Counted from the first letter of the stretch, positions 60,593 through 64,000 are shown. The stretch is 64,000 bases of DNA from Vicinamibacterales bacterium (GCA_965262925.1 CBDHGC010000004.1:2385112-2449111); one strand, 5' to 3'. Notes: generated by a model not told the origin, from the letters alone. Translations and numbers: made by a program.

Positions 60593-61165
60593 TCAGGACA
60601 TCCGGCCGGCCGGCGTGATCGCACGCCTGGTGTCGCTCGTCGCGGCCGTCGGCCGCATCGCCAGATCCAGCAGCTCGTCGATCCGCGTCACGTAGTCGAT
60701 GGCGACTGCGCACCGGAGGTCGTCACCGAGCTCTTCGACATGCTTCCGGTTCTGCCGCGGGAGGATGACGCGGGCCAAGCCACAACAGTGTGCGGCCAGC
60801 ACCTTCTCGCTGATGCCGCCGACCGGCAGGATCTGCCCGGAGAGGGTGACCTCGCCGGTCATGGCCAGGTCGCCGCGGACCACGCGCCCCGTCAGCGCGG
60901 ACACCATCGCGGCCACCATCGCGACCCCGGCCGAGGCCCCGTCCTTGCGCGCCGCGCGTGACTGCACGTGGACATGAATGTCGGCGCCGCGATGGAAGCG
61001 CGGGTCGATGCCGTACCGCGCCGCGTTGGCCCGCACCCACGACAGCGCCACCCGCGCCGACTCCTGCATCCCCTCTCCGAGCCCGCCGGTCAGGGTCAGC
61101 GCGCCGGTGCCGGGCATGCGGCTGACTTCGACGAACAGGACGTTGCCGCCGACCACCGTGGTTAG
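60593..61165 (-). CDS. Lon (S16) proteolytic domain segment of the multi-AAA+ Lon locus
   Basis: LTTVVGGNVLFVEVSRMPGTGALTLTGGLGEGMQESARVALSWVRANA…RKDGASAGVAMVAAMVSALTG…MTGEVTLSGQILPVGGISEKVLAAHCCG… The catalytic Ser (DGxSAG) and Lys (GGIxEKxLAA) contexts are present. This segment is offset by one nucleotide from the upstream AAA+ segment at about 61163. Confidence 0.8.
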   Translation of the reverse strand, partial: LTTVVGGNVLFVEVSRMPGTGALTLTGGLGEGMQESARVALSWVRANAARYGIDPRFHRGADIHVHVQSRAARKDGASAGVAMVAAMVSALTGRVVRGDLAMTGEVTLSGQILPVGGISEKVLAAHCCGLARVILPRQNRKHVEELGDDLRCAVAIDYVTRIDELLDLAMRPTAATSDTRRAITPAGRMS

Positions 61166-62163
61166 CCTAGGGCGACACCCAGCCGACCGGTGCGGGCGGC
61201 GATCTCCGCCTTGCGATGTGACGGCGGCCCCAGCGTCCCGGCGAGGAGCTCCGGCGTGACATCGACCGGCGCCTCGTCCCCCTCGGCCCGGCGGCGCACC
61301 ACCTTGGCGCAGACCGTGGCCAGCGCATCGGCCAGGTCCCACACCCCCGCTCCCCGCGTGTAGCCGCTGATCACGGCCTCCATTGCTTCCTCGGTAACCT
61401 GGACCTGATCGGCGGTCAGGCCGTGGTGCGCGAGCTGCCAAGGCAGCAGGTACCGTGTCGCGATGACGCCCTTGTCCGCATCGGTGTAGCCGGGCAGCTC
61501 GATCACCGTCATCGTTTCCCGCAGCACCGCCGGCACCGAACCGAGGCTGTTGGCCGTGGCCACGAAGAGCGCCTCGGCCAAGTCGAACGGCAGGTCGACA
61601 TAGCGGTCACGGAACGCCGCACCCGGCGCCGGGGCGATGGCCTCGAGCAGCGCCGCCGCCGCGCCGCTCCCTCCGTCGAGACGGTCGACCTCGTCGAGGA
61701 CGAACATCGGATTGCGGACGCCGACACGCCGCAACTCGTCGACGATCCGCCCCGGCGGGCCCGAAGGGATGCCGTGCACCGCCGCCGCACCGTTGAGCTC
61801 GCCGCAGGCCACCCATGCGCGGGCGCGCCCGAGGGCCACGGCAAGCAGCCGCGCCAGCGACGTCTTGCCCACTCCCCCCGGCCCCACCAGGCAGAGCAGC
61901 GGCGCCGTCGCATGCGGCTTCGTCAAGCGCACGGCGATGTAGTCGACGAGGCGCTCCTTCACCGCTTCGTGTCCGGCATGCCCCGCGTCGAGGACCGTCC
62001 TGGCGCGCGCGAGATCGAGCGGCGCGGCGGAGTGCTTGGTCCACGGCAGGCTCGCCAGGCACCGCAGGTACTCGCGCGCCCGCGCACGTTCGGGATCGGT
62101 CCGCGGCCACGTGGCCAGCCGCTCGAGGACCTCCCGCCCCCGCTCCCGCACGACGTCCGGCAT
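61162..62163 (-). CDS. Lon-type AAA+ module 3
   Basis: …YLRCLASLPWTKHS…LDAGHAGHEAVKERLVDYIAV…LLCLVGPGGVGKTSLA…NPMFVLDEVDRL…ALLEAIAP…FRDRYVDLPFDLAEALFVATAN…ELPGYTDADKGVIA… is the complete Lon A-domain pattern. The frame stays open upstream to about 62215, where it meets module 2 in another frame. Confidence 0.8.
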   Translation of the reverse strand: MPDVVRERGREVLERLATWPRTDPERARAREYLRCLASLPWTKHSAAPLDLARARTVLDAGHAGHEAVKERLVDYIAVRLTKPHATAPLLCLVGPGGVGKTSLARLLAVALGRARAWVACGELNGAAAVHGIPSGPPGRIVDELRRVGVRNPMFVLDEVDRLDGGSGAAAALLEAIAPAPGAAFRDRYVDLPFDLAEALFVATANSLGSVPAVLRETMTVIELPGYTDADKGVIATRYLLPWQLAHHGLTADQVQVTEEAMEAVISGYTRGAGVWDLADALATVCAKVVRRRAEGDEAPVDVTPELLAGTLGPPSHRKAEIAARTGRLGVALG

Positions 62164-62209
62164 CCCGGGCGCGTCGACCTGTTCGCGGAGACGGTCGAGA
62201 CTGCGCCGC

Positions 62210-64000
62210 CGTGATGCGCTCGCGGACCAACAACGCGTTGCCGGTCTCCAGACCCAGCGCCACCTTGCGGCAGACCGTCTGCAGACAGCGGGTGAGCTGA
62301 CGGATCCCCCGCTCGCTCGTGTAGTCGCGAATCATGCGGCGACAGGCGCCCCGGGTGAACCGCACCGGCGTGGCCATCAGCCCCGCGCCCGGGTTCTGTG
62401 CAGGGATCAGGTGCGTCTCGGCGATGGCGATCTTCTCGGCCTCGGTGTAGCCGGGCAGGTCGATGATCTCGAGCCGGTCACGCAGCGCCGGCGGGATCCG
62501 CGCCACCTCGTTCGCTGTCGTGATGAACAACACCGCGGAGAGGTCGAACGGCAGCTCGACGAATGCGTCGCGGAAGCGGTCGTTCTGCGCCGGATCGAGC
62601 ACCTCGAGCAGGACCGCGGCCGGCGCGGGGCCGAGCTTGTCGATCTCGTCGAGCACGAACACCGGGTCGTTGCTTCCCACGCGCCGCATCTCGCGCAGGA
62701 TCGAGCCGGGCTGCGCGTCTCGCCAGGTCCTGTTGTGGCCGCGCAGGTCCGTCTCGTCGTGCAGCCCGTCGCAGGCCAGCTTGACGAACCCGCGCCCCAG
62801 CGCATGGGCCGTGCACTGCGCCAGCGAGGTCTTGCCGACTCCGGGCGGGCCCGAGAAGCAGATCACCGCGCCCGTGCCGAGCGGGTTCCGCCGCCGCACG
62901 GCGAGGTGCTCGAGGATGCGCGCCTTGGCGTGCTCAAGGCCCGCGTGCCCGGCGTCGAGCGCCGCGCGGACACTCGTCAGGTCGGTCGGCGTCGTGTTGC
63001 TGCGGGTCCACGGCAGCTGCTCCAGCCACTCGATCCAGCCGTTGGTGCGCTCGGCATCACCGTCCGGCTTGTCCCCCAGGCGGCGGCGCTCGCGCGCGAT
63101 CGCCTCCCGCACGGCCGGGGGCAACGCGTCGGCGGCGCCGGTGCCCAGCATCTCCCGCACGGCGGCCGGCGTGATCACCTCCGACTCCGCGTCTCCAGGC
63201 GACCCGCGCTTCATGACCTGCTGGCAGACCATCGCCAGCTTCGCGTTGAGCTCCGCCACGCCCGCTTCATTCGTGTTGCGGATCACGTCGAGGATCGCCT
63301 CGGACTCGAAGCGGACCGTGCCCTCGGATGCCGCCGTCCACCATGCGTCGGCGGCGGGAAACGGCGGCCCGGCCGACAACGCCTCCAGCTCTGCCATCGA
63401 CGACACCTCGCGCTCGGCCACGACGACCGGACCGTCCGAGCCGGCGTCCGGCGCGACGATCGAGGGCGACGCTGCCGGCTCCGGCGCCAGGCACCCGGCC
63501 GGCACCGGCACGGTCACCTCGAACGGGCGCTTCAGCAGGTACTGTTCGGCGATGGCCAGCTTCTCCTGCTCGGTGTAGCCCGGCAGCTCGATCACTTCCA
63601 ACCGACCGCGCATCTGCTTGGGAATCGCCTTCGGATCGGCCGCCGTCATGATCCACAGGGCCGCCGACAGATCGAACCGCAACTGGAGGTACTGGTCCTG
63701 GAATGCCGAGCCGACGACCGGGTCGAGGACATCGAGCAGTGCGCCGGCGACCTCGGGTTTCACCTCGTCGAGCAGCTCGAGGATGAAGGCCGGGTTTCTC
63801 ACCCCGGCCTCGCGCAGGCCCCGGACGATGCGTCCGGGGGCGGCGCCTTCCTTCCCGCGGATCACTTGCTCGGTGTGGTGCTCGTCCAGCGCCACGCGCA
63901 CGTGGTTGCGGCCGAGCGCCTCGGCGACGGCCACGGCCAGTGACGTCTTGCCGGTCCCCCCGGGGGCCCGACCAGGCACGGGACGCGCGCCGCGGCCCCG
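62210..64000 (-). CDS. Lon-type AAA+ modules 1 and 2 (5' end off the window)
   Basis: Module 2: WLEQLPWTRSN…LDAGHAGLEHAKARILEHLAV…ICFSGPPGVGKTSLA…VFVLDEIDKL…LLEVLDPAQNDRFRDAFVELPFDLSAVLFITTAN…DLPGYTEAEKIAIA. Module 1: …GGTGKTSLAVAV…LLDVLDPVVGSAFQDQYLQLRFDLSAALWIMTAA…ELPGYTEQEKLAIA. The module 1 Walker A is split across frames at the C6G5 run (63956-63966). Confidence 0.75.

Follow-up and report, generated by a model that had tools for sequence, protein, structure and literature searches.

A stretch of 64,000 nucleotides from a Vicinamibacterales bacterium (GCA_965262925.1 CBDHGC010000004.1:2385112-2449111; the whole of it is referred to here as the window) carries at its end, on the minus strand, a gene for a Lon-type protease in which three consecutive AAA+ modules precede a single S16 proteolytic domain. 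Positions 60593-64000 are the 3′ 3.4 kb of a single gene of ~4.2 kb, and this gene belongs to a conserved family of triple-AAA+ Lon proteases. The observations as a whole are probably best explained by such a family, the members of which would act as stacked hexamers with the second module as their motor and would be carried as cargo of integrative islands, and by a window copy that has become a pseudogene.

Three Lon-Type AAA+ Modules and One Proteolytic Domain

Translation of the minus strand from 64000 to 60593 yields three Lon-type AAA+ modules, diverged from one another, and then a single S16 domain, with three frame changes along the way: the reading runs in frame 1 at 63999-~63961, in frame 0 until ~62201, in frame 1 until 61165 and again in frame 0 to the stop codon at 60593-60595. 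Pfam AAA and Lon_lid domains were found in each of the three successive pieces and Lon_C in the last piece only, and the TIGR00763 model ("endopeptidase La") matches the joined reading of 1,135 residues in three stretches (E 3e-291); these matches place the Lon-like reading far beyond chance. An earlier reading made from the sequence alone had described three copies of the Lon A-domain, diverged from each other, before one proteolytic domain, and this layout is confirmed by translation, Pfam and TIGR00763. The divergence is also borne out, as the pairwise identity among the three modules is 30–45%, a level that rules out an assembly duplication. The domains are positioned as follows.

63128..64000, minus strand: module 1 (M1), consisting of an AAA+ alpha/beta domain, a family-specific insert of ~60 residues and a Lon lid; degenerate ATPase; Pfam AAA 7e-11 and Lon_lid
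62201..63127, minus strand: module 2 (M2), consisting of a helical "LPxxVR...LPW" prelude, an AAA+ alpha/beta domain and a lid; Pfam AAA 5e-19, Lon_lid 7e-12
61200..62199, minus strand: module 3 (M3), consisting of a helical prelude, an AAA+ alpha/beta domain and a lid; partly degenerate; Pfam AAA 2e-7, Lon_lid 5e-12
60593..61199, minus strand: S16 (Lon_C) proteolytic domain and stop codon, single copy; Pfam Lon_C 3.7e-64

M1 is cut by the window edge just upstream of its Walker A motif, and the codons for the catalytic Ser and Lys of the protease are located at 60932-60934 and 60803-60805, respectively (minus strand).

A Conserved Family in Acidobacteriota

A homologue search with the joined reading returned, among its best 120 matches, 70 proteins of 1,360–1,475 residues that are 52–96% identical to the query with ~100% coverage. 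On the contigs that encode these homologues of ~1,400 residues, the Lon gene is one unbroken open reading frame (ORF), and the loci L001, L002, L003, L004 and L084 each show a full-length match in a single frame. The homologues make up a family of ~1,400-residue Lon proteases of soil Acidobacteriota, the full-length members of which were placed in Vicinamibacterales, phylum Acidobacteriota, by a scan of species-representative genomes. The sole name found for them is "AAA family ATPase [Acidobacteriota bacterium]". Several genomes contain more than one copy; P0019 and P0025 share one contig of 9.29 Mb, and P0274 and P0277 are both encoded on the 7.59-Mb chromosome OZ242279.1.

The upstream end of the gene was reached through L085, a second contig of the same strain (ENA sample ERZ25068833, labelled 4x coverage) that overlaps the window and runs past its edge. 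Residues 1-272 of the homologue P0001 match L085 in a single frame, which places the start codon ~770 nucleotides beyond window position 64000. The ~270 residues encoded there comprise an N-domain of ~95 residues, a poorly conserved linker, the helical prelude of M1 and the first strand of that module. Accordingly, the expectation that the locus continues past the window was correct, but the further modules considered possible are absent: the family has exactly three modules, with no fourth upstream. Residues 1-265 of the homologues gave no Pfam match, even at E<=5, and the LonA N-domain PF02190 was not found in them; an AlphaFold2 (AF2) model of N-terminal residues 1-100, with a predicted local distance difference test score (pLDDT) of 68, gave no match in the PDB at E<0.8 by Foldseek.

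The earlier reading had left a choice between one giant tandem-AAA+ Lon, its frame broken by errors or decay, and a string of overlapping genes for free-standing AAA+ subunits and a protease subunit. The intact single-ORF homologues of ~1,400 residues in many genomes indicate a single gene and, together with the three derived insertions and deletions described below, support the former. Separate genes are very improbable. An ORF of 333 residues covering M3 does open at an ATG at 62163, and gene callers divided the L085 locus into 4-5 genes, but orthologues at 62–96% identity are single continuous ORFs, the breaks interrupt a Walker A motif and the first strand of the protease rather than the boundaries between domains, and a frame-0 ORF would need ~590 nucleotides out of frame across M3. 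The idea that the triplication is an assembly artefact, in which one Lon gene was expanded, has next to no likelihood: apart from the repetitive pattern nothing speaks in its favour, and against it stand the module-to-module identity of only 30–45%, the motif states that differ between the modules, and the separation of M1, M2 and M3 into three orthologous clades across many independent genomes.

Motif Conservation in the Modules and the Protease

Each repeat unit is equivalent to a segment of LonA that begins with the helical "LP..V...LPW" region, includes the alpha/beta domain and ends with the lid; the third unit and the protease together are matched by TIGR00763 positions ~254-794. Motifs were counted over 70 full-length family sequences. 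All of the catalytic positions are retained in M2: the Walker A motif GPPGVGKTS (K in 70/70), the Walker B DE (70/70), an aromatic pore loop, RGHNRTW (W in 69/70), the sensor-1 N (69/70), the Arg finger (R in 70/70) and the sensor-2 R (69/70). M2 is also the most conserved region of the protein, with a mean pairwise identity of 76%, and every Lon in the PDB aligns best to it. The complete AAA+ catalytic set is found in M2 alone (69–70/70 per position), and M1 and M3 fail at several positions; judged from these motifs, M2 is the only fully canonical ATPase module of the chain.

M1 has kept the Walker A G..G.GK (K in 70/70), but has E-[G/A/L] instead of the Walker B DE and T instead of the sensor-1 N, lacks sensor-2 and shows an Arg finger R in just 33/70. 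The atypical Walker B region of M1 (AFILELLDEV), to which the sequence-only reading had drawn attention, is accordingly a real feature, and a family-wide one. The pore loop of M1 is four residues shorter and lacks an aromatic residue, and its insert of ~60 residues is disordered in the AF2 model. M3 keeps the Walker A K (70/70) and the Walker B DE (68–70/70), has W in place of the sensor-2 R throughout (70/70) and carries a short pore loop; the Arg finger R occurs in 49/70, and the sensor-1 N and the Arg finger R occur together in none (0/70). In the distant members P0141 and P0155, a motif scan detected Walker A in M2 only, and the M2 loop RGHNRTW is retained.

The catalytic Ser and Lys of the protease (S1296 and K1339) are invariant in 70/70 and 42 residues apart. 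A Ser–Lys spacing of 42 residues is the rule for Lon (PMC9569914), and the Lon_C domain with both residues at this spacing assigns the family to the Lon S16 proteases. The residue that precedes the catalytic Ser is Ala in 49/70 and Pro in 4/70. In a neighbour-joining tree, M1, M2 and M3 form three separate clades within which the same members branch in a similar manner, indicating that the triplication predates the radiation of the family.

Frame Disruptions in the Window Copy

Two orthologues with unbroken reading frames were aligned with the window DNA: L001, which is 98.3% identical in nucleotides, and L002, which served as the outgroup. This alignment identified three frame-disrupting changes that are derived in the window, +2, -44 and -7 nucleotides.

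63956..63966, minus strand: lesion 1, +2 G in a C5G6 run within the M1 Walker A motif (GPPG/GTGKT), at ~63961; frame 1 to frame 0
62195..62205, minus strand: lesion 2, a 44-nucleotide deletion between M2 and M3, with its junction at ~62202; frame 0 to frame 1
61160..61170, minus strand: lesion 3, a 7-nucleotide deletion at the start of the protease domain, at ~61166; frame 1 to frame 0

Frame breaks are present at the three junctions noticed earlier, with sizes other than the one nucleotide each then given. At the site of lesion 1, both L001 and L002 have G4, and P0001-P0003 read GPPGTGKTS. Lesion 2 removes codons ~856-871, VRAFLGAPAVDPTDG, and the 44 nucleotides are kept in both L001 and L002. 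At lesion 3 the window reads GVALG/LTTVVGG and the orthologues read GVALGLSLTTVVGG; the deletion creates a frame-1 TAA stop at 61162-61164, and the reading goes on in frame 0. Programmed frameshifting was considered and rejected, since the orthologues stay in frame across all three sites.

Two kinds of genes downstream of the Lon gene are damaged as well.

59890..60317, minus strand: excisionase-like HTH_17 genes in tandem, immediately downstream of Lon; Pfam HTH_17 4e-11 and 9e-4
58463..59594, minus strand: tyrosine integrase of the island; Pfam Phage_integrase 2.7e-25 (joined reading)

A frame change divides the second HTH_17 gene of the pair, and the integrase lies in three ORF pieces as the result of one frame change plus a stop codon in frame at 58760-58762. 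It is thus the whole integrase–excisionase–lon module that has decayed, and not the Lon gene alone. Intact ORFs of 1,000–1,620 codons (up to 4.9 kb) are present elsewhere in the window, and the occurrence of broken neighbouring genes amid such ORFs makes a generally error-ridden assembly unlikely. A comparison of L085 with window positions 64000-52022 (12 kb) showed 0 substitutions and ten small indels; all three Lon lesions are also present in L085, and the ten differences fall elsewhere. The window branch has 15 synonymous and 12 non-synonymous lineage-specific substitutions and the L001 branch 12 and 8, respectively, numbers that indicate a recent inactivation. One window-specific substitution, G667D, strikes a residue that is invariant in 25 diverse aligned family members.

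Read in this way, the alignments make it very likely that the window copy is a true and recent pseudogene, situated at the edge of a decaying integrative island. Several points weigh against this conclusion. Both the window and L085 look like long-read metagenome assemblies, L085 being labelled 4x, and the two could stem from related read sets; the +2 lesion sits in a homopolymer, where systematic errors recur; and the ratio of non-synonymous to synonymous changes (N/S) is no higher on the window branch than on the intact branch, so that the decay, if real, must be very recent. The same points feed the alternative that the gene is intact in the living organism and that the Lon, integrase and excisionase-like genes look broken through consensus errors in a long-read assembly of low coverage: the N/S ratio carries no sign of relaxation, lesion 1 lies in its homopolymer, and L085 and the window differ by indels only (over 12 kb, 10 gap openings with 0 substitutions), which implies indel noise in at least one of the two assemblies. 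We nevertheless consider consensus errors unlikely as the source of the breaks, because the 44- and 7-nucleotide deletions lie outside homopolymers and are common to both contigs, the ten between-contig differences lie away from the lesions, the window holds the long intact ORFs noted above, and six disruptions (three in Lon, one in the excisionase-like pair and two in the integrase), one of them an in-frame stop codon, are gathered within ~5.5 kb of one island module.

Broken copies recur in the family. On the Vicinamibacterales chromosome OZ220736.1 (L014, 10001-14238), the family member is likewise fragmented, with M3 and the protease in one frame and a short M2–M3 piece 2.6 kb upstream in another frame. 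The window itself contains a further remnant.

12699..12809, minus strand: relic of another Lon gene of the triple-AAA+ family, distinct from the main copy; the last ~37 codons, with the remainder of the gene gone

A tblastn search of P0001 against the window aligned 37 residues of this relic with P0001 residues 1354-1389 (65% identity, E 2.5e-7), so the "stray Lon C-terminal fragment" reported in the sequence-only reading is real. Mobility of the family in this genome, as suggested in the same reading, agrees with both this second relic at 12.7 kb and the integrase and excisionase-like neighbours of the main copy.

Proposed Working and Quaternary Form

From the conservation of its motifs, M2 would be the sole ATP-hydrolysing, substrate-gripping motor. 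M1 and M3 would form nucleotide-binding, hydrolysis-impaired tiers without pore loops, which may serve in assembly, gating or regulation; the inactive rings of NSF or Pex1/Pex6 are analogues for such a role. Substrate would be passed to a catalytically competent Ser–Lys chamber. The most likely quaternary form, as far as it can be deduced from the sequences, is a hexamer in which three homotypic AAA+ rings are stacked over one protease ring. The sequence-only reading had likened a giant Lon to the stacked rings of ClpB/p97; this comparison is plausible, with the qualification that the middle module alone makes a complete ATPase and its two neighbours are degenerate.

Three considerations favour this arrangement. 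In each module, the cis-acting elements and the module's own trans-acting Arg finger are kept or lost together (kept in M2 and degraded in M1 and M3), and such co-conservation, which lends the model indirect support, is expected if the contacts are between like modules, that is, in homotypic rings. A side-by-side arrangement would give the perfect site of M2 a poorly conserved finger and would place two protease domains in a ring. Finally, each lid is directly followed by a helical prelude, and this continuity likewise favours stacking. In LonA structures, the helical prelude is situated on the N-terminal face of the ring.

On the other side, the AF2 monomer of the 1,141-residue member P0035 has confident domains (pLDDT 82.4) but a predicted template modelling score (pTM) of only 0.39, a Foldseek search with this model returned single-module LonA chains only, and rings without pore loops above and below the motor would be unusual for a translocase. 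The modules of one chain could instead lie side by side in a single ring, with two chains forming a dynein-like pseudo-hexamer. Three divides six, single-chain multi-AAA+ rings exist in dynein and midasin, and with a pTM of this order the inter-module geometry is undefined in the model. Such a ring is nonetheless rather improbable: the M2 site would rely on a neighbour's finger that is poorly conserved in both candidates (M3 and M1, at the counts given above), the invariant finger of M2 would be spent on a dead site, a ring with only two protease domains could not make the closed six-fold chamber of solved Lon structures, and the run from each lid into a prelude would lead to the N-terminal face of a next tier. 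The stacked hexamer therefore stays the preferred model.

The Lon Gene as Cargo of Integrative Islands

In the loci examined, the Lon gene is flanked by integrases, AlpA/HTH_17 excisionase-like genes and insertion sequence (IS) elements, and intact relatives elsewhere have one or two AlpA/helix-turn-helix domains beside the Lon gene. Across 8 loci, no conserved partner gene was common to all; a small upstream ORF was found in 3 and a metallophosphoesterase-like ORF also in 3. The gene is thus a stand-alone cargo of integrase/excisionase islands. A tRNA scan for an attachment site found none in the window. The integrase of L003 was tried as a reference for the window integrase and proved not to be homologous.

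Given this context, a role in defence or in mobile-element conflict is the leading guess. The evidence that runs counter to it comes from three sources. A PADLOC-DB 2.0 search of the Lon protein and six neighbours gave no full-length defence match to Lon, only partial or P-loop-level matches; among these, the BrxL model covers ~170 residues of the C-terminal protease region (2e-16). The single known defence-type neighbour in the loci examined is a protein of 229 residues encoded at L085 6308-6997, ~2–3 kb upstream of the Lon start and outside the window, which matches PD-T4-10_B (E 1.8e-26). A scan of viral contigs found no family member, only ordinary single-module Lons, many of them on metagenome-assembled genomes of giant viruses. 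BrxL, from BREX, resembles the family in being a Lon-related protein tied to mobile or defence islands, but the likeness is confined to the C-terminal match just described, and no BREX genes adjoin Lon in the loci examined. A broader proposal is tentative and, taken as a whole, doubtful: the family may represent a class of three-tier proteolytic machines, with one motor ring between two pseudo-ATPase rings, that spreads as single-gene island cargo in Acidobacteriota and acts in phage or mobile-element conflict or in the control of island excision, the degenerate tiers serving as sensors or gates.

Further features were observed in the window and among the relatives. Window ~52670-54986 (minus strand), equivalent to L085 18916-21232, matches Pfam AbiEii (weakly) and NTP_transf_2/Polbeta; these AbiEii and nucleotidyltransferase genes near the island are a toxin–antitoxin or abortive-infection-type gene pair. 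A stretch of 129 nucleotides at 11715-11843 (minus strand) encodes 43 residues identical to those at L003 ~4358-4486, the 3′ end of the unrelated L003 integrase call, and is probably an IS or transposase fragment that the two have in common. At 8854-11174 (plus strand), two overlapping ORFs of 522 and 367 residues encode an IstA-like transposase and an IstB-like helper ATPase, and the pair looks like an intact IS21-type element from its translations. Three large paralogous segments (15732-21316, 23332-25902 and 36169-41519; DNA identity 73–94%) contain ORFs of 1,006–1,620 codons that all end in ...DQRVLGRATVQW and are followed by a repeated ORF of 398 codons; they may be cassettes for repeated surface or outer-membrane proteins. 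Among the relatives, P0022 (1,261 residues) is a family member cut within M3 and fused in frame to an MmeI/Eco57I-type N6-adenine methyltransferase (PF02384, PF07669, PF20473), which resulted either from a deletion that fused adjacent genes or from chimerism in the assembly, and L001 has a weak MmeI_hel match upstream of its Lon gene.

Comparison With Known Lon Proteases and AAA+ Unfoldases

The Lon subfamilies LonA, LonB, LonC and LonBA each consist of an A (ATPase) domain followed by a P (protease) domain (PMC9569914), and the literature searched yielded no account of a Lon with several AAA+ modules in its chain. Representatives of LonA (endopeptidase La, MEROPS S16) are E. coli Lon, B. subtilis LonA (3M6A) and M. 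taiwanensis Lon (7FD4). The family shares with them the S16 Ser–Lys domain with the same 42-residue spacing and, in M2, the Lon-type AAA+ domain with its Lon lid, "LPW" helical prelude and full motif set; in structural alignment, M2 is ~35–39% identical to the solved LonAs. It differs in having three AAA+/Lon_lid units per chain instead of one, in intact homologues as well, and an N-domain of ~95 residues without detectable relatives in place of PF02190. The pore-loop aromatic residue is W in the family and Y in LonA, and Ala precedes the catalytic Ser in the family, in contrast to the Pro of LonA (PMC9569914). The TIGR00763 score of 968 bits (cut-off 608) is summed over three matched stretches and is thus no proof of equivalence to endopeptidase La. 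The cut-offs of the LonB, LonC and BrxL models were missed (TIGR00764, 83.5 vs 516.6 bits; TIGR02903, 96.5 vs 678.8 bits; TIGR02653, 51 vs 628 bits).

The type II AAA+ unfoldases ClpB/Hsp104, ClpA/ClpC, p97, NSF and Pex1/Pex6 also carry several AAA+ modules in one chain, and combine a catalytic tier with degenerate nucleotide-binding tiers, as the motifs suggest for the Lon family. In these proteins the tiers number two, belong to different AAA+ clades and are not fused to a protease; the family, in contrast, has three tiers, all of Lon type and fused to a protease, which are predicted to stack.

Other multi-module Lons were recovered by an exhaustive representative search. P0150 and P0163 (~1,330 residues) have two Lon-type modules, one active and one degenerate, and a single Lon_C. 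In P0142 (1,675 residues, on a Logan contig of 11.5 kb), a single Lon_C is preceded by three modules, each of which has an aromatic pore loop and a canonical Walker B, sensor-1 and Arg finger. The three proteins are only 34–42% identical to the query, P0061, and their duplications are therefore probably independent; tandem-AAA+ Lons may have arisen more than once.

Significance

For the window copy, in all likelihood dead, the fitting annotation is that of a pseudogene on a degraded island. The family to which it belongs is invisible to function-based searches because its members are annotated only as "AAA family ATPase". Lon is the textbook example of a chain with one ATPase module and one protease domain, and the triple-module family departs from this layout. 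It offers a natural test case for the contribution of inactive AAA+ tiers and for the passage of a polypeptide through rings without pore loops. It is equally a test case for the origin of tandem AAA+ proteins by internal duplication, and in this respect bears on the hypothesis of Rotanova et al. that a portion of a second AAA+ module survives in LonA (PMC6722904).

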